Program-made: the position numbers and the translations under genes
The notes under the pieces: model-generated
What the model was told of the DNA's origin: nothing
Databases searched by the model: none
Seen by the model: the letters and a program-made list of their open reading frames with translations, nothing else
NCBI GenBank assembly: GCA_900317375.1
Contig: ONGJ01000022.1
Span: forward strand, 1-32,000
Direction of reading: 5' to 3'
Origin: an uncultured Eubacteriales bacterium
Lineage (GTDB): Bacteria > Bacillota > Clostridia > Oscillospirales > Oscillospiraceae
DNA length: 32,000 nucleotides
Part shown: in pieces, positions 3,336 through 17,353 of the stretch
Layout of the letters: the number at the start of each line of letters is the position of its first letter
Position numbering within the stretch: position 1 is the stretch's first letter

Positions 3336-3391
3336 AACCGCTCTGAACATTTCCTGAAGCATTTTTAATCCAGGAGACAGTCAGAGCGGTT
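3322..3391 (-). terminator. Long-loop hairpin with T-tract (minus strand)
   Basis: 11-bp arms aaccgctctga (3336-3346) / tcagagcggtt (3381-3391), 34-nt loop. The minus strand then reads tttgttttcttcaa. Confidence 0.35.
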
Positions 3392-3705
3392 GTTTATGAT
3401 ACAAGCTTATTGAAAGTGTATTTTCAAAACGGAAAGCGGCTTTGTCAGGCGAAGCACGCTTTCACCGCAGCGAAGCAACTATTCATCTTCCTCGTCTTCG
3501 TTGCTGTCGCCGCTATCGCCAAACAAATCAGGCGAAGCTTGGTGATTTTAACAGAATATCAGGAAAAGCCAAGGTTGTAAATCACATTTTTTGTTCATTA
3601 TATAACAAAAAGCCGATTCTTTTGATTGCGTTATCAGAAAGAGCATGATATTATGGTTGTAATACTTGAAATCGCATACTGATAATCCGTGATGGAGGTA
3701 TCGCT

Positions 3706-6036
3706 ATGAAGACTACTCTGCGTATAGCATTCTCTTTACTGTTTTGTGTGATGGTATTCTTTTGCTTCAGTTCTGCGGCTTTTGCTGATAATATTGCCTC
3801 AGGCACTTGGGGTGATTTGAGTTGGACACTGGATGTCGAAGGAACGCTTACCATCTCCGGCAATGGAAAAATGAATGATCTTTCATGGTCAAGCTCTGAT
3901 GCTTGGCACGCATACAAAAATGATATCAAGGAAGTAGTATTGCTTGCCGGTGTGACAAGCATCGGCAGAGATGCTTTTTATGATTGCCGCAATCTGGTAA
4001 GCATAAATATAACGGATACCATCACGAGCATCGATATGTTTGCTTTCGATTTTTGTACCAGCTTGAAAAAAATTACAATTCCGGAGACTGTCACAAATAT
4101 TGGTTCACTAGCTTTTAATAGATGCAGCGCTTTGACAACGGCAGGCCCGATCGGTAGCGGGTGTGATTATGAGTTTGGCTGGACTCTAGCAATCCCTGGA
4201 AATGCTTTCTCGGGGTGTAGCGGTCTGACAAGCATCATAATCCCAGAGAGCGTAACAACCATTGGCAGCAATGCTTTCTCTGAATGCAGCAGCTTAACCA
4301 GTATCGAAATCCCAGAGAGCGTAACAACCATTGGCAGCAATGCTTTCTCTGAATGCAGCAGCTTAACCAGTATCGAAATCCCGAGCAGTGTCACAGAAAT
4401 TGGGTACGCTTCGTTTAGAGACTGCATATCTCTATCAAGCATCAAAATACCAAATAGCGTGATCTCTATTGGAAGTAGTGGATTCTCTGGTTGCAGTAGC
4501 CTTTCAAACGTAACTATTCCGGCTAGCGTTGTCAGCCTTGGTGGCTTCCCATTTTCTGAGTGTACCAATTTAACTGCAATATATGTAGATCCGAACAACC
4601 CATCTTATTGTGATATAGATGGAGTTCTCTTTACGAAAAACAAAGCTGTACTATTTCAATATCCTGCTGGTCGGGAAACAACCTATACAATTCCCGACTG
4701 TGTGAGTCGAATATTGAACGGAGCTTTTGATGGATGTATCAACCTTAAAAATGTGATAATTCCCGATAAGATAACAAGCATTGAGATGAGCACTTTTACA
4801 AAATGCAGTGGCATAACCAGTATTATTATTCCTGATGGCGTTACTAGGATTGGCAGTGATGCGTTCTCTTTCTGCACCGGCCTGACCAGTATTATTATCC
4901 CTTATGGTGTAACAAGTATTGAAGACTATGCATTTTGGAGATGTGATAGTCTTACCGACGTGTATTTCTCTGGAACAGAAGATGAATGGCAGGCTATAAA
5001 TATAGCGTCGAATAATGAAGACCTAATTAACGCAACAATTCATTATGCTGATAATGTCCATGATATTGTAGATTCTGGTCGTTGGGGAAGTTTGGAATGG
5101 ACTTTGGATAGGAAAAGAATATTAACGATTTCTGGTGTAGGGATGATGGATGATTTTTCGCCCGATTCTTCTGAAGCATGGAGGAGGAGTAGAATAACAA
5201 GTATCGAGAATGTAATCATTAGTGCAGGCATAACAAGTATTGGTAATTTTGCTTTCAAAGACTGCAAAAATATGACGAGTGTTGTAATCCCAGATACCGT
5301 CACAACAATAGGGTTTGACTCCTTTCGCAACTGCAGCAGTCTTGATGGCTTAATAATTCCAGAAGGGGTTCAATTTATTGGCGGTGATGCGTTCATGGGC
5401 TGCAGCAGCCTTACAAATGTATTGCTTCCGGCAAGTTTGAAAAGCCTTGATGGTTTTCCATTTGCAGATTGCAGCTGTTTATCCGCAATAACAGTCAATC
5501 CCGAGAATCCTGTCTACTGTGATGTGGACGGAGTGCTTTTTACAAAGAACTTGAAGATTCTTTGGCAGTATCCTGCAGCGAGAAATGGCTCCTATATCAT
5601 TCCTGACAGTGTAACTCACATATGTAATGGCGCTTTCTATGGTTGCGGCAACTTAACAGATATTACAATTCCAAACACAGTGACGAGCATAGAGAAGAGC
5701 ACCTTTTGGGGATGTATCGGGCTGACCAGTATATTGCTCCCTGACAGTATAAGCAGTATAGGTGATTGGGCTTTCAATTCTTGCAGTAATTTAACAACGA
5801 TTCGTTTTCTGGGCTCGCCACCGCAGTCAATCTCAAATAATGCGTTTCAGAATGTAACTGCTAATGCGTATTATCCAGCAGATAAAGGCTGGACGGCAGC
5901 CAATATGAAGAACTATGGTGGGAAGCTGACGTGGATACCTTCTGGTACTGTACCTGACTTCATCCTCCCTGCCAACCTAACTTCAATTGAAGAAGAAGCA
6001 TTCGCAGAATGTGCGTTTACCTATGTCCAAATCTAA
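3706..6036 (+). CDS. BspA-type leucine-rich-repeat surface protein with signal peptide (C-terminus truncated by frameshift)
   Basis: SD ggagg lies 8 nt upstream. Signal peptide MKTTLRIAFSLLFCVMVFFCFSSAAFA. Two blocks of 23-aa LRR units each start GTWGDLSWTLD / GRWGSLEWTLD. Stop is TAA at 6034-6036. Confidence 0.85.
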   Translation: MKTTLRIAFSLLFCVMVFFCFSSAAFADNIASGTWGDLSWTLDVEGTLTISGNGKMNDLSWSSSDAWHAYKNDIKEVVLLAGVTSIGRDAFYDCRNLVSINITDTITSIDMFAFDFCTSLKKITIPETVTNIGSLAFNRCSALTTAGPIGSGCDYEFGWTLAIPGNAFSGCSGLTSIIIPESVTTIGSNAFSECSSLTSIEIPESVTTIGSNAFSECSSLTSIEIPSSVTEIGYASFRDCISLSSIKIPNSVISIGSSGFSGCSSLSNVTIPASVVSLGGFPFSECTNLTAIYVDPNNPSYCDIDGVLFTKNKAVLFQYPAGRETTYTIPDCVSRILNGAFDGCINLKNVIIPDKITSIEMSTFTKCSGITSIIIPDGVTRIGSDAFSFCTGLTSIIIPYGVTSIEDYAFWRCDSLTDVYFSGTEDEWQAINIASNNEDLINATIHYADNVHDIVDSGRWGSLEWTLDRKRILTISGVGMMDDFSPDSSEAWRRSRITSIENVIISAGITSIGNFAFKDCKNMTSVVIPDTVTTIGFDSFRNCSSLDGLIIPEGVQFIGGDAFMGCSSLTNVLLPASLKSLDGFPFADCSCLSAITVNPENPVYCDVDGVLFTKNLKILWQYPAARNGSYIIPDSVTHICNGAFYGCGNLTDITIPNTVTSIEKSTFWGCIGLTSILLPDSISSIGDWAFNSCSNLTTIRFLGSPPQSISNNAFQNVTANAYYPADKGWTAANMKNYGGKLTWIPSGTVPDFILPANLTSIEEEAFAECAFTYVQI
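4240..4377 (+). repeat. Perfect tandem duplication 2 x 69 bp (one 23-aa LRR unit)
   Basis: 4240..4308 equals 4309..4377 (atcccagagagcgtaacaaccattggcagcaatgctttctctgaatgcagcagcttaaccagtatcgaa). It encodes IPESVTTIGSNAFSECSSLTSIE twice. Confidence 0.95.
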
Positions 6037-6182
6037 TCTATATCTATATTCCAGAAGCAACTACAAGTATAGATCCCAATGCTTTTGGCGATTTATCGAC
6101 ACTAACGATTTTTGGTAAAACTGGAAGCACAGCTGAAACTTTTGCACAAACACACGGATTTGACTTTGTGGCTGTTTCCTGA
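6027..6182 (+). pseudogene. Out-of-frame C-terminal segment of the LRR gene 3706..6036
   Basis: The other frame reads PNLIYIYIPEATTSIDPNAFGDLSTLTIFGKTGSTAETFAQTHGFDFVAVS*, which continues the LRR consensus directly after ...AFAEC. The 14 nt gcgtttacctatgt (6013-6026) separate the two frames. Confidence 0.6.
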
Positions 6183-6224
6183 AAGCAGAAGCAAAACAAG
6201 GGGAGTATGGTGGTTTCACCCTTG
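6181..6224 (-). terminator. Weak terminator-like hairpin after the recombinase gene
   Basis: Stem caaggg/cccttg (6197-6202 / 6219-6224). The minus strand then reads ttttgcttctgctttc. Confidence 0.3.
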
Positions 6225-6233
6225 CTCTCCTAC

Positions 6234-6797
6234 TCATATCAACTCAGCATGTCCTTCAATCGCCTTTTCAATCCTCTGTGGTTCAATCCCAATATAACGC
6301 TGTGTGACGGCTGCGCTGCTGTGCTGTAGGAGACGCTGAACAAGAGCAATGTCAAACCCATTGTTCCTGTAAATCTCTGTGGCATACCATTTCCTGAAAG
6401 AATGCGTGCTGATACCTTCATAGCCCAGGTATTCACAGACAAGGCCAAGCTGCTTTTGAATGGCTCTGGTAGTGACAGGGAACATCAGCGCATCACGCGC
6501 TATACCGTTGCGCAGGCAATAATTCTCCATATACTGATAGATAACAAGGGGAACAGTGAAAACACGCTGTTTCCCTGTTTTCTGTTCCACGATGGAAAGG
6601 CGATAGCGACCACCGTCATTTACAATATCGCAAAGGCGCAGCCTGACAATATCGCTGATTCTGATACCAAGGTTGCCTTCCAGAACGAGAGCGGTTGCAA
6701 TCCGTTCATTCCCTCTGAACCCGCTGCCCCCTTCTTTCATGGTCGTAATGATATTTCTATACTGCTCAGTTGTGAGTGCGGTTGTTTTCTTGTTCAT
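6234..6797 (-). CDS. Small (187 aa) tyrosine site-specific recombinase, catalytic domain only (FimB/FimE-sized)
   Basis: SD gggagg lies 5 nt upstream. LGIRISDIVRLRL supplies the first catalytic Arg, THSFRKWYAT is H-x-x-R, and LLQHSSAAVTQRYI supplies His...Tyr. No N-terminal core-binding domain. Stop is TGA. Confidence 0.85.
   Translation of the reverse strand: MNKKTTALTTEQYRNIITTMKEGGSGFRGNERIATALVLEGNLGIRISDIVRLRLCDIVNDGGRYRLSIVEQKTGKQRVFTVPLVIYQYMENYCLRNGIARDALMFPVTTRAIQKQLGLVCEYLGYEGISTHSFRKWYATEIYRNNGFDIALVQRLLQHSSAAVTQRYIGIEPQRIEKAIEGHAELI
6240..6272. repeat. 33-bp perfect direct repeat, copy 2 (inside the 3' end of the recombinase gene)
   Basis: Identical to 3167..3199. Offset 3073 bp, bracketing the second LRR gene. 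Confidence 0.95.
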
Positions 6798-6917
6798 GAT
6801 TTCCTCCCAATAGTTCGTTATTCTGAGGCGGGAAAGTTCGTTTCCTGTTGGATTTCCGAACCTTCCCGCGTGTTTCCGGTGATCTGCTGTTCGTTTTCTT
6901 CCGCTTTTACGAACTTT

Positions 6918-7568
6918 CTACGGAGCAAGCACCATCTGAATATCACAGTCAAGACAGGCAATGTTCACATTCCGCGTTGCCCGGACGCTCATACCGCAGC
7001 AAGGGCAGATATACTTTCTTGTGCTGGACGGCTTCCGTGTTGCTCCCCCAGTGAATGTTCCCGCGTGGGTCCCGGTTCCGGTGACTCCCACGCTCATGCC
7101 GTCATTGCGGCAGAGGCGGATTTCTGTGAGGTCGTTATCAAGGCAGAACTCAACCAGCGCCTCAGAGGGGGAAGTGATTGACCAGCCATATGTTTCGTGA
7201 TGCTCGATCACAAGGTCACAGCTTTCGGCAACTGCCTTGAAGTGCCGGTTGTGGTAGGTGTTTCCCCGGCTACAGTCTTTCACGCCGTTCACATCGTTGA
7301 AGTAGTGGACCATCTCATGCAGCAGGGTTGCAACGACATTTTCAATCGGCCTTGCCAGCGTACCGGCTCCGATATTGATTTCCCGCATCCCCTGCTCACC
7401 GTCAACCGACCAAGCATCATAAAGGGTGTAATGGCCGTAAGCTTTGGGCGTGCTCTGAATCGTGATCACCGGCCGTGAAAGTGTACTTTCAAAATAGCGC
7501 TCATTCAGCAGATCGAAAATCTTGTTGAGATAGGCAGAAGCGCGGTTGTAGGTGGTAAGCTGTTTCAT
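6918..7568 (-). CDS. SprT-like zinc metalloprotease domain protein with C-terminal zinc ribbon
   Basis: HExxH motif in LLHEMVHYF. C-terminal CPCCG...CLDC. SD agaggag lies upstream of ATG 7568 (MKQLTTYN), so the track's longer start at 7658 is unlikely. Stop is TAG at 6918-6920. Confidence 0.8.
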   Translation of the reverse strand: MKQLTTYNRASAYLNKIFDLLNERYFESTLSRPVITIQSTPKAYGHYTLYDAWSVDGEQGMREINIGAGTLARPIENVVATLLHEMVHYFNDVNGVKDCSRGNTYHNRHFKAVAESCDLVIEHHETYGWSITSPSEALVEFCLDNDLTEIRLCRNDGMSVGVTGTGTHAGTFTGGATRKPSSTRKYICPCCGMSVRATRNVNIACLDCDIQMVLAP

Positions 7569-7688
7569 TTTGTTAGCTCCTCTCTTGATTTTGTGAGAGG
7601 GGCAGGTTATAATGTGCCTGCCCTCTCTTGTCGGATTGGGTAAGTCTCTTGCGTTCATGCTTGCCGGCGTTACGCAAGGGGCTTTTCT

Positions 7689-7964
7689 TTACGCGATGGA
7701 AAAGCGGCGGGAAGTGCTCGGCTTGGTAAAGCTCTTGTAAAGGTCCGCATAGGTTTTCTTGAATGCGGTAGTGTCAAAGCGGTTGGAAATCACCGTGCGC
7801 CAATAGACGATGTACTGCCCAGCTTCCAGCTCCTCAACATCCTGCGCCAGCATTTCGGCCTTGATGGTATCACGCAGCGCATCGGCTTCGGCCTGCGCCT
7901 CATCAATCAGCGCCTCAAGTTCTTTGATCTGCTCAATCTTGGTGATAATGTCGGTCTTGCTCAT
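7689..7964 (-). CDS. Hypothetical coiled-coil protein (91 aa)
   Basis: SD aaaggag lies upstream of ATG 7964. Heptad-like EQIKELEALIDEAQAEADALRDTIKAEM. No recognised catalytic motif. Confidence 0.6.
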   Translation of the reverse strand: MSKTDIITKIEQIKELEALIDEAQAEADALRDTIKAEMLAQDVEELEAGQYIVYWRTVISNRFDTTAFKKTYADLYKSFTKPSTSRRFSIA

Positions 7965-8044
7965 TGTGTTTTCTCCTTTTCTGATATTTGGGAGCGGCTC
8001 TGCTTGGCTTGTGCCGTCCCTTGATTACGTGTACAATGATAGCA

Positions 8045-8060
8045 TATATTGCGCAATATA
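8045..8060. promoter_or_regulatory. Operator-like perfect palindrome 1 (tATATTGCGCAATATa)
   Basis: 16-bp perfect palindrome in the divergent intergenic region 7965..8175. Confidence 0.6.
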
Positions 8061-8078
8061 TCCATTCGCAAAACAGAC

Positions 8079-8096
8079 AAATATTGCGCAATATTT
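8079..8096. promoter_or_regulatory. Operator-like perfect palindrome 2 (aaATATTGCGCAATATtt)
   Basis: 18-bp perfect palindrome with the same 14-bp core ATATTGCGCAATAT. Core starts 35 bp after core 1. Confidence 0.6.
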
Positions 8097-8109
8097 TTGT
8101 GTAATTTGT

Positions 8110-8123
8110 ATATTGCGCAATAT
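8110..8123. promoter_or_regulatory. Operator-like perfect palindrome 3 (ATATTGCGCAATAT)
   Basis: Third copy of the 14-bp core, 29 bp after core 2. It overlaps the candidate -35 of the RHH gene promoter. Confidence 0.6.
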
Positions 8124-8141
8124 TTCCTCATGCTTTATACT
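8113..8141 (+). promoter_or_regulatory. Candidate sigma-70-type promoter of the RHH gene
   Basis: TTGCGC (8113-8118), 17 nt spacer, TATACT (8136-8141), about 35 nt upstream of ATG 8176. Confidence 0.4.
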
Positions 8142-8175
8142 ATGCTTGTACTATTATATAAAGGAGCTGTTTCCT

Positions 8176-8376
8176 ATGGAAAAGGCAGAAAAATCAGCAT
8201 ATAGAAATAGTTGGATTGCAGAAAAACTAGATAGAATTAATTTTACCATGCCAAAAGGAAAGAAAGAAAAGGTAAAAGAATATGCAGAAAAACAGGGGCT
8301 TTCTTTGAACGCTTATATCAATTTGGCAATTGATGAACGCATGGAAAAAGATGAAAACAGTCCCCCGCCCGGCTGA
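8176..8376 (+). CDS. Ribbon-helix-helix (Arc/CopG-like) DNA-binding protein, 66 aa
   Basis: SD aaggag (8161-8166). The pattern INFTMPKGKKEKVKEYAEKQGLSLNAYINLAIDERM is beta-strand then two helices, typical of RHH. Only the last 66 codons of track ORF 7810..8376 have an SD and start. Confidence 0.65.
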   Translation: MEKAEKSAYRNSWIAEKLDRINFTMPKGKKEKVKEYAEKQGLSLNAYINLAIDERMEKDENSPPPG

Positions 8377-8585
8377 ATCTAACTATATATTGTGCTATGA
8401 TCCCCCATAGGGGCTATATATCGGGCGAAAAAACATAAAAAAGCACGATATACAGTATATCTGGCCGCAAAAATTCCCAAAAGAATATAGGATCTGAAAT
8501 TCGGATTGCCCGGCCCATCACAGCGCAATGAACTATGTCAGAAGATTATCCGCACGCTCTCTCTTCGTGGAACAGAAACGGAAGA

Positions 8586-8623
8586 GACAAAAAGAAACGG
8601 AGGATAGCGATGATTCACTATCC
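8586..8623 (-). terminator. Rho-independent terminator ending the helicase/GIY-YIG operon
   Basis: Minus-strand stem ggatagtg/cgctatcc (8 bp, one G-U), 6-nt loop, followed by tccgtttctttttgtctc. Confidence 0.55.
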
Positions 8624-8632
8624 CCCGTGTTC

Positions 8633-8809
8633 TCAATTTTGGATTTTCGCTAAAGCGTTCCGCATATCGCGTTCGCGCATTTCTTCTTCCGTGTTATTCC
8701 AAACGGCTTGCAGAATCTACCATGGCTTGGCCTCGCTTGGCCGTGACAGCACAGAATCTGCTTCGTCTTCTGGCACCGGTTCAAATAACTGTTCAACTAT
8801 CGTTTCCAT
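8633..8809 (-). CDS. Small ORF (58 codons) with one in-frame TAG
   Basis: ATG 8809 is preceded by gggaggg and overlaps the GIY-YIG 3' end. Translation: METIVEQLFEPVPEDEADSVLSRPSEAKPW-TAG(8717-8719)-ILQAVWNNTEEEMRERDMRNALAKIQN-TGA. Hand-translated base by base. Absent from the ORF track because of the TAG. Confidence 0.35.
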
Positions 8810-9221
8810 TGGCTGCGCCCTCCCGCATTATTTCTTCCAGGGTAATCTCCCGCGCACGGGGATTCACATCAAATCTGTGCCAATCCCCTTCTTTCGGAAT
8901 CTGTTCATTCAGTGGCGGCCGGTATTTTCGGATAAAGTATCCTTCGTTTGCGCCGATCTCTTCAACCATATCCAAATAGTTTGTTCTTTTGGCGTCATAG
9001 ATCGCTTCAAACCGGACGCAGTGTCCTTTCCGCTTGGCTTCGGCCAGTATCCTGTATTTATGATTATCAGGATATTTGATACGGGCATTGTGCTTTGCCA
9101 TCCGCCACATCATATTTCTGCTTTTCCCGATATAGACGATAATCCCGTCAATCGTAATCTGGTAAATTCCAGCATGGTCAAACGCTGGCGCATAGCCGTT
9201 GCGTTTCAACCAGTTGAACAT
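8793..9221 (-). CDS. GIY-YIG nuclease family protein (142 aa)
   Basis: GIYQITIDGIIVYIGKS (GIY...YIG). Downstream NEGYFIRKYRPPLN matches the conserved E...P..N region. No clear SD. Confidence 0.85.
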   Translation of the reverse strand: MFNWLKRNGYAPAFDHAGIYQITIDGIIVYIGKSRNMMWRMAKHNARIKYPDNHKYRILAEAKRKGHCVRFEAIYDAKRTNYLDMVEEIGANEGYFIRKYRPPLNEQIPKEGDWHRFDVNPRAREITLEEIMREGAANGNDS

Positions 9222-9322
9222 ATTCTATGTATAATTCGACAATTCAAGTCGCCTCCATAACTGTATAGTTTCCTGCCAAAATTAGCGCAAATATATATGA
9301 TTGCGTCAAAAATGGCAGGGTT

Positions 9323-10507
9323 TCACACCGTGGGTAGGGAAATAACTGCGTATCGCAGATTATTTCGCCTGTCTTCTTTAACATCATAACCCTGTTCCTT
9401 CAACATTTCTTTAACAGAGGGCCATTTATATTCTTTCCTAAAGTGACTTTTAATTTTGAGTAGTTCACAAAGCCGGTCTTTCCCATCTTTAAAAAGTGGA
9501 GTATCAAGGAAATCGTCAGGGATAATGATTTCTTTCGTGCCATCATTCAAGAGGTACAGTTTTTTCAAATCACTGTTCACCCGTCCTCGCACCTGAACCT
9601 ATGTGTCTGGATTCGTGTTATCCACAATCACATAATCCACCGGGGATTTGATCTTGATACTGGTTTCGGAACTGCTGTTGATGATCAGCAGATTATACGC
9701 TTCGGGTATCCTGTAATCACGCAGAATGGTTTCACGAGCGGTTTTCTGTTCTTCTGTCATAGAATGATCTTCGTTTTTTATGCTCCAAATACAGACAGGG
9801 GATAAACCGTTCTTCTGCGCAAGATCCTGAATCTTTAACATCTTTTTGATACGGGCTGTATAAAACAAGCCGATTTCTCCCGCGCCTATGCCGCTAAGAA
9901 TCTATTCCAAATTGGTATAATAGATAACCTGATCTTCGCTGTAATGAATCAGCTGCTCTTGGTTTATTGGAATCTCCTGCCATGCCATCTATGAATCTTG
10001 CTTGATGATATCCGGGGTTGCAGAGAGAGCTATGACCGTAGTGCGTTCATTTCTTACTGCTGAACGGATACCCATTAGTGCAAGGGAATGATAATTCGGC
10101 TTGGGAGAAAAGGTCTGAAAATGATACAGGCTGTGTAACTCATCACACACGATATAATCGAAATTGCTTTGGAAATCAACAAATTTCTAACAGAGAGAAC
10201 CGAACTTCGCATAGGTTAGAATGACAATGTGCCTGTCATCTTCAAACCATATTTCATCTCTGGCAATGTCCTTTGCCCATCCCCAGTATTCAGAGATCGC
10301 ACTGTAATTTCGTAGAATCTGTTCCTGACCATTGATTGTATCGATCAGGTAGACCACACTATGCAGAGCATTAAATGAAATGGACGGGATATAGTTCAGG
10401 GCAAAATATGTCTTTCCACTTCCAGGCGGCGAGCGGATGATATTCAGTTTTCGTTTCAAAAACGCTTGTTCATCCACAAGCTCAGATAAATACTTTTTGT
10501 CTTTCAC
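9323..10507 (-). pseudogene. SF2 (DExH-type) helicase: single intact frame of 395 codons interrupted by four in-frame TAG codons
   Basis: GTG 10507 overlaps the upstream stop (GTGA). Motif order: SPPGSGKT, TAG 10187-89, YIVCDELH, ALSATP, TAG 9989-91, TAG 9902-04, TAG 9599-01, VQVRGRV, TGA 9323-25. Track ORFs 10187..10507, 9599..9868 and 9323..9592 are all in this one frame. Confidence 0.8.
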
Positions 10508-10968
10508 TTTGAAAGTGTAGATTCAAAACCCATCAGCTTTTTAGGATCGCATGTTTCCCATTCGTAAGGAAGTGTCGTTACATCGTATGGAAGGTCATTG
10601 GCATAATAGCCTGCAAGTTTCCATTGCGTTACAACGCCGTCTTTGATATACAAGTATTCTGCCATGGAACAACTGGGGCAGACGTTATATACTTCTATAC
10701 TCAGGTTTAGCCTGCGCGATTCCTCCAATAGTAAAGAACAGCTCATATCATCAATGTCTTTACCAAAGCTTACGGAAACAAGCAAAGGACAATAACCATC
10801 AAGATAAAGGCAGAATCCCTCTTCAGTATTACGTTCAAAATACCATTCAAAATCTCTAAGCTCTTTATAGGCGGTCCGTTCAGGATGTTCACCATTTAGA
10901 ATCATGTAGAATTCTGCGCAATTGCTTTCTGTTCCTGTAATCTTCATAGAATATAATGTAGTGTTCAC
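10504..10968 (-). CDS. Hypothetical protein (154 aa), translationally coupled to the helicase
   Basis: SD taaggagag lies 8 nt upstream of GTG 10968. The 4-nt overlap GTGA links it to the helicase start. No recognisable motif. Confidence 0.6.
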   Translation of the reverse strand: MNTTLYSMKITGTESNCAEFYMILNGEHPERTAYKELRDFEWYFERNTEEGFCLYLDGYCPLLVSVSFGKDIDDMSCSLLLEESRRLNLSIEVYNVCPSCSMAEYLYIKDGVVTQWKLAGYYANDLPYDVTTLPYEWETCDPKKLMGFESTLSK

Positions 10969-11006
10969 TTTGAAAACTCTCCTTAGTATTTATTTTTTCT
11001 ATATAT

Positions 11007-11035
11007 ATTATAACAAAAATAATTTAAATTTTCAA
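11007..11035 (-). promoter_or_regulatory. Near-consensus promoter for the 154-aa/helicase/GIY-YIG operon
   Basis: Minus strand reads TTGAAA (11030-11035), 17 nt spacer, TATAAT (11007-11012), about 35 nt upstream of GTG 10968. Confidence 0.6.
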
Positions 11036-11071
11036 ATTATTGGCAATTTCATCCTTCTTTATGAACTTTTT

Positions 11072-11108
11072 TGGCAAGATTAAAGCCCCTGCTGTAATTA
11101 GCAGAGGC
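11072..11108 (-). terminator. Terminator after the 179-aa/58-aa/179-aa operon
   Basis: Minus-strand stem gcctctgc/gcaggggc (8 bp, one G-U), 8-nt loop, then tttaatctt. Confidence 0.5.
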
Positions 11109-11134
11109 TTCATCACATATAGTATATTCATATC

Positions 11135-11674
11135 TTAACTCGCTATCTTCTCTGAGTCTGGGGAAATAATGGCCGTATTCTCATTGTCCATATTTGGCTG
11201 TTCACTGTTTTCCTCAAGGAAACTGTGTATGTCAACAGGTGCTACTTCATAACCAAAATAGAACATAGGATTGGTTTTAAACTTTGGAAACTGAGTCAAA
11301 AACCATTTGCTGACAATAGAATAATGGGATTTGGAAATCTTCTTTGATTGTTTCCGCAGAATTCCATAGTTTTCCTTGATCTTTTTGTTGCTTTCCGTAT
11401 TGGGGAGCAGATCAATATATGTATCCATACGATCGTATGTGAGTCCACGGAACTGATTTCTCTTGGTAATAGAACCATTGCGGTTTTTATACTTTTTGGG
11501 AGTCTCATGAGTTCTGCTTTTTAACTTGAGATCCGGAATGTCCTTAATAAGCCGACTATACAATTTGTATGCTTCGCTTTCAGGATCTCTCAACTGCTTG
11601 CTAACCGTAGCCGTAATAATAGCTTCTCTTTTTACAAAATCAATATTAAAACCCTTAACCATTTCAGTACTCAT
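11135..11674 (-). CDS. Hypothetical protein, paralog A (179 aa)
   Basis: SD aaggag upstream. Shares the N-terminal GFNIDFVKR-type motif and the PDLKLKSR...PKK segment with 11902..12441. Confidence 0.65.
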   Translation of the reverse strand: MSTEMVKGFNIDFVKREAIITATVSKQLRDPESEAYKLYSRLIKDIPDLKLKSRTHETPKKYKNRNGSITKRNQFRGLTYDRMDTYIDLLPNTESNKKIKENYGILRKQSKKISKSHYSIVSKWFLTQFPKFKTNPMFYFGYEVAPVDIHSFLEENSEQPNMDNENTAIISPDSEKIAS

Positions 11675-11698
11675 TATTATATATCTCCTTTTTTAAAA

Positions 11699-11875
11699 TT
11701 AAGCAATTCTATCAATGCGAACGTCACAAAAGAACTCTTTGCTTTCCTCAGAGTAGAAGAAACTCCGTTCATAGGCGCTTTCTTCACGATACTGATGGAA
11801 ATTATACCGGCTAGAAACAGAGAAGTAATTGACCTCATAGTCTTCCACATTAAACTTTTCATAAAACTTTTTCAT
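11699..11875 (-). CDS. Small hypothetical protein (58 aa)
   Basis: SD aaggag lies 8 nt upstream of ATG 11875. Translation: MKKFYEKFNVEDYEVNYFSVSSRYNFHQYREESAYERSFFYSEESKEFFCDVRIDRIA*. Preferred over the overlapping track ORF 11677..11862, which has no SD. Confidence 0.45.
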   Translation of the reverse strand: MKKFYEKFNVEDYEVNYFSVSSRYNFHQYREESAYERSFFYSEESKEFFCDVRIDRIA

Positions 11876-11901
11876 TTTCGTTATCTCCTTTTTTTATATT
11901 A

Positions 11902-12441
11902 TTATACATTGACTACACTCGGGTATTCTGCTATTGCCGGTTCAGTGTCGTCCGGCTTATCCGCTTCCGGCTCTTTTTCTGAGCCGGAAGCGCCATCATC
12001 ATTCTTGAGGTGTCTAATCCTGTAGTCTCTTACTACTTTTTCTGCTTCTTTGAAGCTGAATGGGGCATCTTCTGAATCATAGATGGAGTAGAGAGTCTTT
12101 TTAGCCTCAAGTAATCTGGAGAATTTCATGCTCTCTGCGTATTCTATTGTAGCATCAATTTCAGCACGTTTGTTTGTGCCGTCCAGTTCGTCTCGGGCAG
12201 AGAAGTAATCCTTGATAAATTCCACATTGAAACCTTTGTAAGTTTCCTTGGGCTTATCACTTCGCTGGGTAAGTTCCTTGATTTTGAATTTGAAATCAGG
12301 ATGATTCTTGACAAGCTTCATCAGCTCCTCGTAAACCGGGCCAGAGCCCTTGCTTGCAAGGTCAAAACTTGTTTGGGTGCCAACAATCTTCTTGTGGACA
12401 AAATCGAGTGTGAAACGCGCAACAACCTTAGACTTTTTCAT
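11902..12441 (-). CDS. Hypothetical protein, paralog B (179 aa)
   Basis: SD gaaagga upstream. RFTLDFVHK and an internal GFNVEFIKD repeat of the same motif. HPDFKFKIKE...KPKE aligns with paralog A. Acidic C-terminal tail. Confidence 0.65.
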   Translation of the reverse strand: MKKSKVVARFTLDFVHKKIVGTQTSFDLASKGSGPVYEELMKLVKNHPDFKFKIKELTQRSDKPKETYKGFNVEFIKDYFSARDELDGTNKRAEIDATIEYAESMKFSRLLEAKKTLYSIYDSEDAPFSFKEAEKVVRDYRIRHLKNDDGASGSEKEPEADKPDDTEPAIAEYPSVVNV

Positions 12442-12491
12442 TTGAGTATTTCCTTTCTGGTTTTATAGACTTGAACTCGTGTCTTTCTTCT

Positions 12492-12545
12492 GGGGATTTC
12501 GTTCCCCCTCATCTTGGTTTCATGATACCAAACCACCTCCACAAT
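12492..12545. repeat. ~53-bp direct repeat, copy A, with near-palindromic core TTGGTTTCATGATACCAA
   Basis: Shares ccctcatcttgg and atgataccaaa blocks with copy B. ccctcatcttgg is at 12506-12517 here versus 12616-12627 in copy B (110-bp offset). Confidence 0.7.
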
Positions 12546-12602
12546 CTCGTTAGAGAGCTTCAAACTTTTTTCCGATTTTTTCTTGGCTCTCCTTTTTGGA
12601 GA

Positions 12603-12657
12603 AGGGCTTTCGTCTCCCTCATCTTGGCTATATGATACCAAAGGACCCCTCCAATAA
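12603..12657. repeat. ~53-bp direct repeat, copy B
   Basis: agggctttcgtctccctcatcttggctatatgataccaaaggacccctccaataat. By-eye alignment to copy A is roughly 80% identical with a 1-nt indel. Confidence 0.7.
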
Positions 12658-12710
12658 TTGTGTAGGGGTCCGAAAGTTTTTCATCTTTTTTCAGATTTTC
12701 TTTTTTTCTT

Positions 12711-12841
12711 TTGGATGCTCGGTGATGAAAGCATGATGTTCAAAGATGCTCAATGATGCTCCTGGATGATATAAGATGTGAAAAGATGCTCTAAGATGCT
12801 TGAACATGTTCTGAGATGCTTTGAGATGTTTTGAAAGTGCA
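12711..12841. repeat. Array of ~13 tandem 10-bp repeats (consensus wrAGATGCTy), helically phased
   Basis: GATG cores start at 12714, 12724, 12735, 12745, 12755, 12765, 12775, 12785, 12795, (CATG 12805), 12815, 12825, (AGTG 12835). The period is 10 bp with one 11-bp step. It is not a multiple of 3, so the array is non-coding. Confidence 0.85.
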
Positions 12842-12973
12842 CATTCAAACCGTCATAATTCGTTTTCTGGCAGAAAAACGAACAATAAAAAACAGGAAAA
12901 CAGCGGCTTAATGCTGATCCCTGTGCAAAGTTCGTATAAAAGTTAATAAAAGTTCGTATTTTGAAGCTTTTTC

Positions 12974-13002
12974 TTGCTCTTTTCTTCAAAATATGTTATA
13001 AT
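12974..13002 (+). promoter_or_regulatory. Strong extended -10 promoter reading toward the tRNA-like remnants
   Basis: TTGCTC (12974-12979), 17 nt spacer, TGtTATAAT (12994-13002). Confidence 0.5.
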
Positions 13003-13014
13003 ATAGGTAAAGGA

Positions 13015-13050
13015 TTAAGCAGGGTGTCTGGTTTCAATCCAGGCAGGTAA
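13015..13050 (+). other. Degenerate tRNA-like fragment (second copy of ttaagcagggtgtc plus an imperfect T-arm)
   Basis: ttaagcagggtgtc is then followed by tggtttcaatcca, which is T-arm-like with one extra T. It lies exactly 110 bp upstream of the better copy. Confidence 0.35.
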
Positions 13051-13100
13051 ATACGAACAGTAAAACCCAAGCAACACAGGCTTTTTCGGGGCATTTTCGG

Positions 13101-13126
13101 AAACGCGTAAGCGTTTTGTTCCTTTT
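13101..13126 (+). terminator. Small hairpin with T-rich tail
   Basis: aaacgc-gtaa-gcgttt (6-bp stem, GNRA-type loop) followed by tgttcctttt. Confidence 0.35.
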
Positions 13127-13166
13127 AAGCAGGGTGTCCGGGGTTCGAGTCCCCGCTGGAGCACCA
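13122..13166 (+). other. tRNA-Lys(UUU) 3' half (anticodon loop to CCA) lacking a 5' half; probable att remnant
   Basis: Reads as loop CTTTTAA, stem strand GCAGG, variable GTGTC, T-arm CGGGG-TTCGAGT-CCCCG, acceptor strand CTGGAGC, discriminator A, CCA. The complements GCTCCAG and CCTGC required for acceptor and anticodon stems are absent upstream. Confidence 0.6.
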
Positions 13167-13172
13167 TTCCGC

Positions 13173-13215
13173 AAAACCGCTGATTCGTTGAGAATTGGCG
13201 GTTTTCCCTTATTTT
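13173..13215 (+). terminator. Terminator-like hairpin after the tRNA remnant
   Basis: aaaaccgc (13173-13180) pairs with gcggtttt (13198-13205), 17-nt loop, then cccttatttt. Confidence 0.4.
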
Positions 13216-13292
13216 ACTGGGGTTTTCTGTGTTTTTCTGTTCTCTTTTTTGTTCCTCTGTTTCCTCAAAAAAGAGCTCATTTTCGCCCAAAT

Positions 13293-13322
13293 TTACTAAC
13301 AAATTACTAACGGATTACTAAC
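13293..13322. repeat. Three direct copies of TTACTAAC at 11-bp spacing
   Basis: ttactaac at 13293, 13304 and 13315. This is about 130-155 bp beyond the tRNA remnant. Confidence 0.7.
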
Positions 13323-13413
13323 AAGAAGCCCTGGGAAAAGAGATTTGCCGCCACCAACCCCGTAACAGGATTGAGTGGCGGCTCATTGTTTGACGGCTCT
13401 TAACTTTTAAACG

Positions 13414-13749
13414 TCAGTGTTTATTATCGTACTCTTCAGGCGCTTCCATCGGTTTCTCAGTTTCCTTCTCTTCCTTTGGAATCTTGATAACCACATTCTT
13501 CCAAGTCTCATAGACACCGACAGCTCCCCAGCCGGAGACAATGCCGACAGCGATAGCAGTCAGAACATCATGTGCCGGGAACTCAGGCATGACCTTCATC
13601 GCCACAACACCGAGAATGCCACCGACCACGCCGCAGATGACGGGAATCCAGCCTTTGTTGATGGGGGTCAATTTTACAGCCTCACCAACGAGAAAACAAA
13701 TGATCGCAACAACAGGGACTGCGACAATCCCCCAATCAGGCATACTCAT
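13414..13749 (-). CDS. Phage holin family protein (111 aa), orphan
   Basis: SD gaaaggag upstream of ATG 13749 (MSMPDWG). Three hydrophobic segments and a charged C-terminal tail KEEKETEKPMEAPEEYDNKH. Preceded by a start-less fragment ...NFFDAVEKLKKNTELEMNDPEYVDPDDVFLVIDIPG*. Confidence 0.7.
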   Translation of the reverse strand: MSMPDWGIVAVPVVAIICFLVGEAVKLTPINKGWIPVICGVVGGILGVVAMKVMPEFPAHDVLTAIAVGIVSGWGAVGVYETWKNVVIKIPKEEKETEKPMEAPEEYDNKH

Positions 13750-14015
13750 GATTTGTTCTCCTTTCTCAGCCCGGAATATCAATGACCAGAAAAACGTCAT
13801 CCGGGTCAACATATTCCGGATCATTCATCTCAAGCTCTGTGTTTTTCTTGAGCTTTTCAACAGCGTCAAAGAAATTACTACTCAGCAGAGCATGACAGCA
13901 TCGAGGTCACCGTGGCCGGGGACTGCGCAAGCCTGATCGGCAGGAGCCGGGTGCGGCAGTGAATGGCGGGCGCATCTTTTCGGATGCCTGACAGACTGTG
14001 AAAGGAGACCGCATC

Positions 14016-15030
14016 ATGAGCAAAAGCAAACCTGTCCCCGGAAAAGACGGGAATAAGTATATCCCCTATGAAGAGCGCACGGGCGAAAGCTCCGTCGTGT
14101 TCTTTACACGCGATCTGTCCGAGGAAGGCCTGAAGAAAATCTATGACAGAGTATCCTCTGTCCTGACCGGCAGGGTAGCCATCAAGCTGCACACCGGTGA
14201 AGCCGAAGGCCCCAATATCATTCCGCGCCCCTGGGTCAGAGAGCTGATCGAAACACGCCTGCCCGAGGCAGCGATCAAGCCGCTACACCACCGAGGCACA
14301 CCGCAAGACCCTGGAGATCAACGGCTGGACCTTCTGCCCCGTCGACATCACCGACAGCGAAGGCGTGGCCGCACTGCCTGTCAGGGGCGGCAAATGGTTC
14401 CGGGAGATGCATGTTGGCAAAAGCATGCTCAATTATGACTCTCTTCTGGTGCTGACCCATTTCAAAGGGCACGTCATGGGCGGCTTCGGCGGCAGCAACA
14501 AGAACATCGGCATCGGCTGTGCGGACGGACGGATCGGCAAAAAGGAGATCCACAGCTATCCCGACGGGGGGATGTGGAGCATTGCAGAGGAAGAGCTGAT
14601 GGAGCGCATTTCGGAAAGCACCAAAGCGACCGTTGACTTTTTCGCGCCTCATGTGTGCTTTATCAACACCATGCGCAACATGTCCGTTTCCTGCGACTGC
14701 GAAGGGCCGGAGGCCGAGCCCGTTGTCACCCCGGATGTGGGTTTCGTGGCCTCTCTGGATATTCTGGCGGCAGACAGCGCCTGCATGGATCTGATCTACA
14801 GTCTGCCCGACGGCGGCGGCAAGACCCTGATCGAGCGCGTAGAAAGCCGCCACGGTCTGCGCCAGCTGAGCTATATGAAGGAGCTTGGCATGGGTCATGA
14901 CCGCTATACGCTCATTGATATCGACAACGGTGATGCGGTCATCACGGCGGCACAGGCCGTGAAGGACGTGAAGCCCGACTGGAAGCCGGACCGCTACAAC
15001 ACCTTCTGGGGCCGCAACCGGCACAGATAA
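14016..15030 (+). pseudogene. DUF362-family protein gene disrupted by a frameshift/short deletion near 14275-14290
   Basis: SD aaggag upstream of ATG 14016. The N-terminal part (VAIKLHTGEAEGPNIIPRPWVRELIE) is in frame 0. The rest (TEAHRKTLEINGWTFCPVD...LTHFKGHVMGGFGGSNKNIGIGC...) is in frame +1 (track ORFs 13998..14438 and 14365..15030). Confidence 0.65.
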
Positions 15031-15048
15031 CAGCAGCGGGAATAAAAC

Positions 15049-15098
15049 GGGTCTCCGATTCTGACCGAAATGGTCACGATCGGAGACCGCTTTTCTTT
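15049..15098 (+). terminator. Rho-independent terminator
   Basis: ggtctccgat (15049-15058) pairs with atcggagacc (15079-15088), followed by gcttttcttt. Confidence 0.7.
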
Positions 15099-15157
15099 AT
15101 AACGGATAATCGGGTTCCCGCCCGCTTCCGGCCGGGGAAGCAGAGGCCTGCCTCTGC

Positions 15158-17353
15158 TTATAAGCATTTGTCGGACACGGTCAGTTCGCCTTTGTCGATG
15201 CGCTCGTACAGCGATGCTTTCGGCACCGGCTTGCCGAACAGGTAGCCCTGAAGACGGCCGCAGCCGATCTGGTTCAGGAACTCTGCCTGCTTTTCCGTTT
15301 CCACGCCCTCGGTGAGAGTCAGCATGTGGATTCTGTTCGCCATCTGGATAATGCAGTCGATGAGCGTCCTTGCCTTTTCGTTGTTTTCAAGGTTGGACAG
15401 GAACCGCATATCGATCTTGACAACATCGAACTGATAATCTTTCAGAACGTTCAGGGAAGAATAGCCGCTCCCGAAATCGTCCAGCCACAGGGAATAGCCC
15501 ATTTCCTGGATGCGGTTCATCGCTTCGTTCAGCTTTGTGAAGTTGTCCGTCAGCGCGCTTTCGGTCACCTCCACGTGGATCAGGTCTTTCGGAATCCGAT
15601 ATTTTGCCACCAGGCTGTCCAGTTCCGTAGCCGCATCCATCAGCTCAAAGTCCAGCCTTGAGAAGTTCAGCGATACGGGCACGACCGGTTTGCCGGCATC
15701 GATGGCCTCCCTGAGGTCCCGGCAGGCGGATTCGAAAATAGACTTGTCCAGCTTGTGGATCAGGCGGTATTCCTCCAGCACCGGAATAAATTCGTTCGGG
15801 AACAGCTGACCGTATACCGGGTCCATCCAGCGCGCCAGCGCTTCACAGCCGCACAATTCTCCCGTATCCGACCATACGACCGGCTGGTAGAAGGGGACAA
15901 TCCAGCCGTTATTCACGGCGTTGTCGATGTTATTGATCACATACAGCCGCTTATGATAGGCCTCGCTCATCGTCTTGTCGTATTCCACGTGAACGGTCTG
16001 GAAGCGGTTCTTGATCAGCTGTGTGGCATAACGCGCTCTGTCTATGCAGATACGCGGGTCCTCGGTGTTGCTGTTCAGGCGGTAGGAGCCGCAGTTGATG
16101 CTCATCAGAATTTCCTTGTCGTAGTCGTGGACAAGGTCATTCAATGCGTTCAGCTTTTCCGTCAGACCCTCCGATTTTGTCAGAACGACAAAATGATCGT
16201 CAGCCTGCCTGCCGCACAAGGAATCACCGAAGAGATCGGAAATGGTTTTCCCGAGAGCGATCAGGAACTTATCGCCCTCTTCAAAGCCTCTCTGGTCGTT
16301 AAAAGCCTTAAAATTATGGACGTCAATGAACAGAAGGACGTTTTCGCTGACATCACCGGTGAGATTGCGGATGCTGTCCTCTGCCAGCTCAGAGAAATAG
16401 CTGTAATTGTAGAGGCCGGTCAGCGAATCCTCTTTTGCGCTTTTCTCCAGCGCCTTCGACTTTCTGGCTTCGTTCAGGCGTCCGCGATAGATGGCAAAGC
16501 AGATCGTAGTCAGAGAAATAAAGAAGGTAATATAGTTAACGGTGTCGCCGGAGGTAATCTGCTTTGTCACACCGCTGATGACGATATCCTGCTTTGCGAA
16601 CGTCAAACCGCCCTGAAAAGTCAGAAGAATATGATAAAACCCGAAGAAACTGACCCCGAGGATCAGCGCACTGATATAGGGGCGGTAGATCAGCAGACAG
16701 CCGACGTACAGCACCATCGTCAGAAAGCAGATGATCTCCTTGCCGCCCCAGAAGTCGCTGTAGGATACGAAGACGCCGAAAGCAAGGCAGACCAGGTTGA
16801 AGGAGATGATCGCCACATATTCCAATGCAACGACATTCCTGTTTTTCAGGTATTTCAGCAGGGCGTAAGCGACAATGGATGCGCCGATCACGAACAGGAA
16901 GACGTAAATCGATACCAGCATGGTGTTCATGACGGCCGCCATGACCGGGGTAATTGTGTCGCTTGTCTTTGTAAACGCCTCCAGGCTCAGCACCGCGGTA
17001 TACAGCATGCAGGCCGTGCCGATCACAAGCAGCGTGATAAACCTTCCTTTTGAAAGCTTTCTGTCTCTCTGATAGAACAGGCAGAACAGCATGAGGCCCA
17101 GACCGATCAGCAGGAACAGCCAGTACTTGGAGGTGTATTTTACGAATAATCCGAACAGGTCCCCGCCTGCCTGATACTTCGGAATGATCTTGGAATAGAT
17201 CTGCCGAATCAGCATCCAGACTTCCAGCAGGACGACAATAAAACCCATATAACTGCAGCTGCGGATATTGGCATCGTGCAGATAGTCTTTTTCGTATTTG
17301 CTCAGTTTCTCGAAACCGAGAATACCTGCCAGGGAACCGGAGAGTTTATCCAT
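15158..17353 (-). CDS. Multi-pass membrane protein with degenerate GGDEF domain and EAL domain (putative c-di-GMP phosphodiesterase)
   Basis: About 8-9 N-terminal TM segments. GGDEF-domain signatures DSLTGLYN and IDVHNFKAFND, but ADDHF replaces GGDEF. EAL signatures CEALARW, DDFGSGYSSL, KIDMRF, EGVET. Confidence 0.9.
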   Translation of the reverse strand: MDKLSGSLAGILGFEKLSKYEKDYLHDANIRSCSYMGFIVVLLEVWMLIRQIYSKIIPKYQAGGDLFGLFVKYTSKYWLFLLIGLGLMLFCLFYQRDRKLSKGRFITLLVIGTACMLYTAVLSLEAFTKTSDTITPVMAAVMNTMLVSIYVFLFVIGASIVAYALLKYLKNRNVVALEYVAIISFNLVCLAFGVFVSYSDFWGGKEIICFLTMVLYVGCLLIYRPYISALILGVSFFGFYHILLTFQGGLTFAKQDIVISGVTKQITSGDTVNYITFFISLTTICFAIYRGRLNEARKSKALEKSAKEDSLTGLYNYSYFSELAEDSIRNLTGDVSENVLLFIDVHNFKAFNDQRGFEEGDKFLIALGKTISDLFGDSLCGRQADDHFVVLTKSEGLTEKLNALNDLVHDYDKEILMSINCGSYRLNSNTEDPRICIDRARYATQLIKNRFQTVHVEYDKTMSEAYHKRLYVINNIDNAVNNGWIVPFYQPVVWSDTGELCGCEALARWMDPVYGQLFPNEFIPVLEEYRLIHKLDKSIFESACRDLREAIDAGKPVVPVSLNFSRLDFELMDAATELDSLVAKYRIPKDLIHVEVTESALTDNFTKLNEAMNRIQEMGYSLWLDDFGSGYSSLNVLKDYQFDVVKIDMRFLSNLENNEKARTLIDCIIQMANRIHMLTLTEGVETEKQAEFLNQIGCGRLQGYLFGKPVPKASLYERIDKGELTVSDKCL

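Follow-up and report, generated by a model that had tools for sequence, protein, structure and literature searches.

Is a gene that is interrupted four times by the same stop codon a gene in decay, or is this codon read as an amino acid? The question is raised by a helicase gene on contig ONGJ01000022.1 (GenBank assembly GCA_900317375.1) of an uncultured Eubacteriales bacterium of the family Oscillospiraceae, of which the positions 1 to 32,000 were analysed (in the following, the window). On the minus strand of the window a single frame of 395 codons extends from the GTG at 10507 to the TGA at 9323–25 and contains TAG at the codons 107, 173, 202 and 303 (10187–89, 9989–91, 9902–04 and 9599–01); other types of stop codon and frameshifts are absent. 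An earlier reading of this sequence, here termed the original prediction, had described the frame, its interruption by these four TAG codons only and the order of the helicase motifs, all of which are reproduced by translation. It had further proposed that the TAGs are read through and had named a very young pseudogene as the alternative. By comparing the gene with its relatives we come to the conclusion that TAG is very probably a selected sense codon for glutamine in this gene, as in genetic code 15, and that the helicase gene and a small open reading frame (ORF) at the end of its operon appear to be functional genes which use TAG in this way.

TAG codons in the helicase gene and its relatives

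The encoded protein is a DExH helicase of superfamily 2 (SF2), as it has the motifs I (SPPGSGKT), II (YIVCDELH), III (ALSATP) and VI (VQVRGRV) in this order and matches the Pfam families ResIII (43.7 bits, cutoff 22.5) and DEAD (32.9 bits, cutoff 26) above the curated cutoffs, both with its N-terminal half. A protein search yielded more than 450 relatives, nearly all of them 385–400 amino acids long. The closest relative (P0001, 92% identity) has glutamine at all four positions where the window has TAG. The DNA behind this protein (L001) has TAG at three of the TAG codons of the window and in addition at codon 305 in place of 303, so that P0001 was evidently predicted with TAG read as glutamine. 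The 90% cluster of P0001 also includes fragments of 106 and 172 amino acids, which are standard-code calls ending at the first and the second TAG. The alignment of the TAG sites to homologous helicases, by which the original prediction was to be checked, thus gives glutamine as the corresponding residue, and the close relatives retain the TAGs.

On the DNA level the close clade comprised 19 contigs from various rumen and bovine samples and assemblers, and the loci L047, L048, L134, L135 and L140 were added later. In more than 20 independent contigs with about 90–100% identity every complete copy is a frame of 395 or 396 codons with TAG as the only interruption; neither TAA nor TGA nor a frameshift was found. 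Within the clade CAG is the sole alternative to TAG, and this exchange is observed at the codons 107, 303, 305 and 372. Codon 303 is TAG in 14 copies and CAG in 3, the reverse is found at codon 305 (TAG in 3, CAG in 14), and codon 372 is more evenly divided (10 TAG, 7 CAG). At codon 107 most copies have TAG, and L134 and L135 have CAG there with their other TAGs remaining. With a Nei–Gojobori count over all pairs, the ratio of nonsynonymous to synonymous differences per site (pN/pS) is 0.16 for the codons 1–106 and likewise 0.16 past the first TAG, and the final quarter of the gene has a pS of up to 0.33. By this measure purifying selection persists downstream of the first TAG. The original prediction had also named in advance an observation that would speak against readthrough, namely homologues with sense codons at these sites together with a dN/dS of about 1 after the first TAG. 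This combination was looked for and was not found.

More distant relatives carry different sets of TAG codons. Sister lineages with 49–68% identity have TAGs of their own elsewhere, including the glutamines Q254, Q303 and Q305 (motif VI). In the P0008 lineage (66% identity, six contigs) the codons 17, 193, 228, 254 and 305 are TAG, in the P0004 lineage (L046, L050) the codons 73, 222, 263, 299 and 305, and L049 has two TAG sites. A lineage from the human gut with 49% identity has a TAG at codon 18 which is conserved in at least 10 contigs and to which L083 adds Q303. The distant relative L121 (29% identity; rumen contig Ga0326514_10154690, 622–1890) has nine in-frame TAGs and no other stop; its contig is just 1.9 kb long and could derive from a heavily recoded phage or element. 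The closely related lineages P0013 (61% identity) and L020 (66%) use the plain standard code. When genome contigs were scanned with an alignment-based profile only relatives with 36–66% identity were found, most of them of standard code, and a scan of these contigs with the single protein gave no match since its patterns were too specific.

An alignment of 79 unique sequences was the basis for the family-wide statistics. Nonsense codons are found in 18 columns as TAG, in one column as TAA (one sequence) and in none as TGA. This excess of TAG, 18 of 19, has a probability of ∼2e-6 under a neutral nonsense spectrum that takes the codon composition and the transition bias into account. Six of the 18 TAG columns are among the 11 columns with a glutamine majority (P = 1.5e-6), including the invariant Q254 and Q305 and the near-invariant Q303 of motif VI, and at 16 of the 18 at least one other sequence has glutamine. 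In addition, TAG as the terminal stop codon is found in none of the 31 sequences with an internal TAG versus 20 of the 48 without (Fisher P = 8e-6). A crude comparison of coding density between code 11 and TAG as a sense codon did not discriminate.

Chance nonsense in a young pseudogene, together with pyrrolysine decoding and hotspots of cytosine deamination, forms a group of explanations which has some observations on its side: CAG is converted to TAG by one transition, a relative with TAA exists (L063, probably a real pseudogene), and a few TAGs are at non-glutamine columns (104, 202, 299). We nevertheless regard this group as extremely improbable. Chance nonsense is contradicted by the near absence of TAA and TGA, by the lack of frameshifts in the full-length matches examined, by TAGs at invariant catalytic glutamines which alternate between Q303 and Q305, and by the avoidance of TAG terminators in the TAG-bearing genes. 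The very young pseudogene of the original prediction is effectively excluded, as the relatives keep the TAGs, exchange them with CAG only and have the same low pN/pS on both sides of the first TAG. Pyrrolysine would place a bulky lysine derivative at the glutamines of motif VI, and neither pylTSBCD genes nor genes for methylamine methyltransferases were found among the genes of the window. A hotspot of deamination or methylation was rejected, because the TAGs share no sequence context (the mutated C is preceded by T, A, A, A and G).

A second gene with an in-frame TAG is the small ORF that ends the helicase operon. Its TAG, which probably also stands for glutamine, and the frame downstream of it are conserved in six loci. 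The stretch PW*ILQAVW of the window (the asterisk being the TAG) corresponds to PWQILQSVW in the homologue from L041, which has its own TAG elsewhere; an 83-amino-acid gene neighbouring this homologue likewise holds an in-frame TAG. The original prediction had placed the TAG of the small ORF at 8717–19, a Shine–Dalgarno sequence upstream and a terminator downstream, and all three were found again, the Shine–Dalgarno-like sequence being a GGGAGGG upstream of the ATG.

Interruption by TAG only, the interchange of TAG and CAG, the glutamine columns and the avoided TAG terminators together lead us to the reading of TAG as glutamine. The proposal of the original prediction that the TAGs are read through is thus supported by their conservation, by the independent sets of TAGs in different lineages and by the glutamine columns. 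That glutamine is the residue inserted in vivo we infer from the same comparisons.

The island and its host

The left 13 kb of the window have a G+C content of ∼41% versus ∼58% in the right part, which holds ordinary host genes (GGDEF/EAL, HD-GYP, two clostripain-like peptidases, an ABC sugar transporter and NhaC). With the host GGDEF protein the same chromosome region was found in many rumen assemblies. One of them (L140) is identical to the window across the element, and five loci of the same host species (L141–L144 and L146) have the empty site, in which an alpha-amylase gene and a holin-like gene flank the tRNA operon Gly-Arg-His-Gln(UUG)-Lys(UUU). As the site is both empty and occupied within one species, we read the island as a strain-variable insertion into the tRNA-Lys gene. 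The remnant of this gene in the window (Table 1) is followed by the terminator of the host tRNA operon at 13173–13205, and weak Rfam matches to tmRNA and mascRNA at 13026–13166 correspond to its 3′ half. The two copies of the core TTAAGCAGGGTGTC are 110 bp apart, which suggests successive or tandem integrations. Further into the host DNA, a DUF362 gene (13998–15030, plus strand) consists of two overlapping frames in the window versus an intact gene of 346 amino acids in other strains; L140 is longer than the window by ∼84 bases at position ∼13971, which points either to a deletion in the window or to a difference in its assembly.

Relatives of the element adjoin genes of tRNA-Lys, Trp, Pro, Thr or Gln. 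Complete small relatives have a length of ∼5.5 kb, counted from tRNA-Trp to the host genes (L105), or of roughly 8 kb (L034). L002 differs from the window in that its helicase operon points the other way with respect to the tRNA, with a gene for an integrase of 317 amino acids ahead of it. As judged from these loci, the element family consists of small integrative islands beside or in tRNA genes of gut and rumen Clostridia, and in the window the island is inserted at tRNA-Lys(UUU) of a host that uses the standard code. A recoded host was rejected: about 13,000 host codons contain no in-frame TAG, and one host gene is terminated by TAG. The case against global recoding made in the original prediction is borne out by this standard-code host, by the SprT-like gene of the island, which ends in TAG, and by the genes of the helicase operon, all six of which end in TAA or TGA. 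In the host sample (window 14000–32000, L136, L141 and L145) the terminators of 31 genes are TAA in 15, TGA in 15 and TAG in one. For a genome with ∼58% G+C this is a low share of TAG, which might reflect a long exposure to amber suppressors or the sampling. Hosts of other TAG-bearing lineages terminate several genes with TAG.

Table 1. Features of the island in the window (positions are those of the window)
Feature	Position	Strand	Remarks
Short tyrosine recombinase, 187 amino acids	6797..6234	-	standard-code operon
SprT-like metalloprotease-fold protein	7658..6918	-	ends in TAG; standard-code operon
91-amino-acid protein	7964..7689	-	phrog_6244, RecE C-terminal-like; standard-code operon
Three copies of the palindrome TATATTGCGCAATAT	8045..8127	.	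operator-like, in divergent promoter region
Arc/ribbon-helix-helix-like regulator, 66 amino acids	8176..8376	+	divergent from the operon of the 91-amino-acid, SprT-like and recombinase genes; homologue in L040–L044 matches Pfam Arc weakly
Intrinsic terminator-like hairpin	8597..8628	-	14-bp stem and T run, from sequence; ends helicase operon
Small ORF, 58 codons	8633..8809	-	last gene of helicase operon; one TAG, codon 31 (8717–19), probably Gln
GIY-YIG endonuclease-like gene, 142 amino acids	8793..9221	-	TAG-free; Pfam GIY-YIG (weak); phrog_1111 endonuclease, 2.4e-9
SF2 (DExH) helicase gene	9323..10507	-	395 codons; GTG start overlaps stop of upstream gene; TGA stop; Pfam and homologues
154-amino-acid protein	10504..10968	-	stop overlaps helicase start (GTGA); no match in Pfam, PHROG or PADLOC
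Best sigma-70-like promoter match	11007..11035	-	TTGAAA-17-TATAAT with TG, consensus match only; upstream of 154-amino-acid and helicase genes
179-amino-acid gene	11674..11135	-	no family match (Pfam, PADLOC, PHROG)
179-amino-acid gene	12441..11902	-	no family match (Pfam, PADLOC, PHROG)
Iteron-like array	12735..12834	.	∼10 copies of a 10-nt unit with GATGCT core; upstream of helicase operon
Integration-site remnants	13016..13170	+	3′ half of tRNA-Lys(UUU), anticodon loop to CCA, 13118–13170; core TTAAGCAGGGTGTC again at 13016–13030

The island is split into a standard-code part and a part in which TAG is a sense codon, and in-frame TAGs are found only in the helicase and in small ORFs. On the minus strand from 12641 to 8633 the genes are arranged in the order 67-amino-acid ORF, two 179-amino-acid genes, 154-amino-acid gene, helicase, GIY-YIG gene and small ORF with the terminator. 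A gene of 154 or 168 amino acids directly upstream of the helicase is kept in the closer relatives (∼61% identity and above); for the protein of the window three close homologues and no family match were found. The positions of the 179-amino-acid genes are taken by genes for 161, 164 or 176 amino acids in other variants. The slot after the helicase, which is occupied by the GIY-YIG gene in the window, is variable: the P0013 lineage has a NUMOD4 nuclease at this place, and the P0008 lineage has two small ORFs. We therefore read the GIY-YIG gene as an exchangeable passenger and not as an obligate partner of the helicase, and it looks like a swappable insert of the homing-endonuclease type. The original prediction had suggested a module of helicase and GIY-YIG nuclease that is gated by a suppressor. 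This remains our view of the helicase, whereas the GIY-YIG gene is free of TAG and thus would not itself be gated. Opposite the GIY-YIG gene and the small ORF, the plus strand has an open frame of 241 codons (8535–9260), which is without family match and probably spurious; some gene callers picked this antisense frame, giving calls of 216 amino acids in L014, L016, L047 and L140.

The standard-code part comprises the operon of the 91-amino-acid, SprT-like and recombinase genes and the divergent Arc-like gene, between which the copies of TATATTGCGCAATAT are likely candidates for repressor operators. The SprT-like gene is TAG-terminated in L002 and L041 as well, and the recombinase gene in L040 and L041. 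A readthrough fusion of SprT-like protein and recombinase was considered, since the recombinase follows 40 codons downstream in the same frame in the window; in L002 the frames differ, and we regard the arrangement as a coincidence.

A perfect direct repeat of 33 nt (3167–3199 and 6240–6272) duplicates the 3′ end of the recombinase gene 3 kb away, so that the second gene for a leucine-rich-repeat (LRR) protein (LRR2, 3706–6036) is bracketed by copies of this end, and L041 has a similar C-terminal remnant of a recombinase (6109–6300) beyond a cargo gene. Both observations suggest that the insertion site of cargo cassettes overlaps with the 3′ end of the recombinase gene. The region 1–6036 of the window codes for two very large BspA-like LRR surface proteins and has an island-like G+C content. 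These proteins have 69-nt periodic repeats and fn3, Flg_new and DUF4214 domains, and LRR1 is identical in L047.

Possible source of the suppressor

Where four or five TAGs have to be passed in one gene, background readthrough cannot yield a product, and an efficient suppressor that inserts glutamine would be needed. In the window ARAGORN detected no tRNA at all, and a suppressor tRNA(CUA) was likewise not detected in L140, in L047 and in ∼90 related loci in all; the tRNAs neighbouring the related loci are ordinary attachment sites. A search of the positions 1–14500 with Rfam at a permissive threshold gave nothing tRNA-like beyond the region of the tRNA-Lys fragment. The statement of the original prediction that a tRNA(CUA) is lacking thus holds for the window, but the window is not free of tRNA sequence, as the 3′ half of tRNA-Lys(UUU) is present and marks the integration site. 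A suppressor tRNA(CUA) in the same element, as is characteristic of code 15, was not found in the scanned loci.

Recoding of this type is known from phages. Phages and prophages which have recoded TAG to glutamine and carry suppressor tRNAs are documented from the gut of humans and animals, among them cattle, and also with hosts from the Oscillospiraceae (bioRxiv 10.1101/2021.08.26.457843; PMC9523058; PMC10879173), and code 15 has been confirmed by metaproteomics (Peters et al., PMC9523058). A Topaz prophage resides in an Oscillospiraceae genome, and the integrases of recoded prophages avoid in-frame TAG (Borges et al., bioRxiv 10.1101/2021.08.26.457843). With the code-15 phages and prophages (Topaz, Garnet, crAss-like and Lak) the island shares in-frame TAGs read as glutamine in a standard-code host, the limitation of recoding to a subset of the genes, and recombinase genes free of in-frame TAG. 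Integration beside tRNA genes in Clostridia and the gain or loss of recoding among close relatives are further features in common. Nevertheless, the island does not qualify as a recoded phage, as neither structural genes nor a suppressor of its own were found. In contrast to the code-15 phages, it has no recognised structural or lysis genes, suppressor tRNA, release factor or glutaminyl-tRNA synthetase, recoding does not go beyond the helicase and one or two small ORFs, and complete relatives have a length of 5–8 kb.

Could the island be part of a TAG-recoded prophage, either a fragment or its early region, with the suppressor tRNA and the structural genes situated beyond the window? TAG-recoded prophages of ∼24 kb beside tRNA genes, with TAG-free integrases, are known in the Oscillospiraceae, the left end of the island extends past the window, and some element proteins match PHROG families. 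On the contrary, the relatives are complete small islands which have neither tRNA(CUA) nor recognisable structural genes, the rest of the island in the window encodes LRR surface proteins, and the element proteins scanned with Pfam and PHROGs matched no phage structural or lysis family. Moreover, IMG/VR contains almost no members of the helicase family. There, a profile search gave one weak match to the helicase, with the P-loop pattern saturating the search, and when the DNA was scanned for the signature motif a single contig was found, which is of standard code and lies beside a prophage. The SprT-like protein had no match in IMG/VR. Relatives of the recombinase were found on two phage-like contigs of standard code, which lack TAG recoding and tRNAs, and DNA nearly identical to the element was not found in plasmids and phages. 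We regard a prophage fragment as quite improbable.

The main rival is a suppressor resident in the host. The host chromosome may encode an amber suppressor, for example a supE-like tRNA-Gln(CUA) derived from tRNA-Gln(CUG), or weak readthrough may act as a constitutive attenuator of a potentially toxic helicase, in both cases with no phage involved. Strains of E. coli with supE tolerate an amber suppressor that inserts glutamine, and the rare TAG terminators of the host would reduce the cost of a resident suppressor. For the lineage with a single TAG at codon 18 weak readthrough could suffice, and a purine follows the TAG in 27 of 35 contexts. However, practically no product is to be expected from weak readthrough of a gene with four or five TAGs. 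The glutamine tRNA in the operon beside the insertion is Gln(UUG) and not CUA, a tRNA(CUA) is absent from every host flank scanned, and the hosts of other TAG-bearing lineages use TAG as the terminator of several genes. We consider a host-supplied suppressor unlikely.

We suggest that the suppressor is supplied in trans. In the resting cell translation would halt at codon 107 and helicase would not be made. Full-length helicase would be produced only when an amber suppressor charged with glutamine is present, and this would be brought by a TAG-recoded phage which infects, or is induced in, the same cell. The in-frame TAGs would then constitute a translational gate which ties the helicase step to the presence of the phage, in the way a satellite senses its helper, and the gated step would probably be replication from the adjacent iteron array after excision. 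Taken as a whole, with TAG as glutamine, a phage-supplied suppressor and a gated helicase, this explanation seems to us reasonably probable. For the recoded phage as the source of the suppressor, which is argued by analogy, we see a somewhat better than even chance, and that the element is a satellite of this phage we propose tentatively, as a possibility that falls short of an even chance.

Several points weigh against this explanation. No suppressor, recoded phage or helper was identified, the search for a tRNA(CUA) covering the window and ∼90 related loci, and no terS, cos, pac or other hallmark of a satellite was found, with several element proteins having no recognisable family. Under an active suppressor the SprT-like protein, and in L040 and L041 the recombinase, would be extended beyond their TAG terminators. 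The copy in the window lacks the 317-amino-acid integrase that is found next to tRNA-Lys in L002 and may be immobile. The proposed replication role is deduced from the adjacent array, from the fold, which is generic for SF2 with a small domain at the C terminus, and from the position of the helicase as a core gene, and recombination among the variants could inflate the significance of the pN/pS estimates.

Possible role and relation to known elements

The conservation of the helicase and its neighbourhood might give a hint on its role. It is the conserved core gene across 36–100% identity and with different recombinases, whereas the nuclease is swappable or absent, and it adjoins the iteron-like array; a primase or a recognised initiator was not found in the element. 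The GATGCT array is also present in L011 (350–417), and L002 has a different array with a period of 11 at the equivalent place. This array is a candidate for a replication origin or an initiator-binding region. The AlphaFold model of the helicase (pLDDT 86.7) consists of two RecA-like domains and a small C-terminal domain of helices and strands, for which Foldseek returned generic SF2 matches, namely RecQ/BLM, DEAD-box and NS3 helicases and the herpesvirus origin-binding protein (OBP). The match to the OBP of herpes simplex virus 1 has an E value of 2e-9, and herpesvirus origin-binding proteins were also matched in BFVD. Like the herpesvirus protein UL9/OBP, the island protein combines two RecA-like domains of the SF2 type with a C-terminal domain behind them, and its gene lies next to an iteron-like array. 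This is a structural analogy only: the identity is just 12–17%, RecQ/BLM, DEAD-box and NS3 match equally well, and origin binding is not indicated.

The same gating could serve a different purpose. The full-length helicase, possibly with the nuclease, may block the recoded phage or kill the cell, so that the element would be an anti-phage sentinel. This reading shares all the evidence for gating with the explanation that we prefer. In addition, a nuclease gene follows the helicase, and a WYL-domain regulator is found upstream of it in the P0013 lineage; regulators of the WYL type are common near defence genes. In L130 (4028–5068), a locus of this standard-code lineage, the WYL-domain regulator heads the helicase operon, and the element also has a resolvase and an integrase of 403 amino acids. 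On the other side, the PADLOC defence models gave for the element proteins nothing beyond a marginal match of the helicase to type IV DinG (E = 0.002, 57 residues), the nuclease is not part of the conserved core, and the operon adjoins the iteron-like array. A sentinel appears to be distinctly unlikely.

With phage satellites (PICI/SaPI, PICMI; PMC10803314) the island has in common that it is a small, tRNA-associated and strain-variable integrative island with a recombinase and without capsid genes. Further similarities are the repressor with its operator-like sites, the candidate replication module beside the iteron array and the proposed dependence on a phage signal. Known satellites sense their helper through phage proteins that inactivate a repressor, whereas the signal proposed for the island is a suppressor tRNA acting at translation. 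Also in contrast to phage satellites, no helper, packaging signal or terS was identified for the island.

Conditional amber mutants and suppressor strains such as supE and supD belong to classical phage genetics. Like such mutants, the helicase gene would depend for its function on the suppressor of the cell, and a suppressor inserting glutamine restores the wild-type protein at TAGs derived from CAG. Unlike laboratory amber mutants, the TAGs of the island are natural, evolutionarily maintained and spread over many lineages and sites. Neither recoded satellites, plasmids or integrative elements nor a defence triggered by a suppressor tRNA were described in the literature searched, which is not proof of novelty.

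What does the locus mean for the biology of these elements? The signature of TAG read as glutamine, with strong comparative support, appears here in a small non-phage island which has no suppressor of its own and resides in a standard-code bacterium, and this gene-specific recoding recurs across several lineages of rumen and human-gut Clostridia. Standard gene callers fragment such genes, which could then be mistaken for pseudogenes. The key gene of the element would depend on a tRNA made elsewhere, and thus the island offers a testable case of one mobile element reading the code switch of another: co-occurrence could be used to match the element with recoded phages that share its host, and the system is small enough to be rebuilt in the laboratory with a suppressor of the supE type. 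It is conceivable, with a chance that we put a little below even, that the element senses the code switch, staying silent until a TAG-recoded phage brings the suppressor and then either hitchhiking as a satellite or interfering with the phage. If this is true, the island would be the first satellite or sentinel to respond to a tRNA and not to a protein, and stop-codon recoding would have spread from phages to their hyperparasites.

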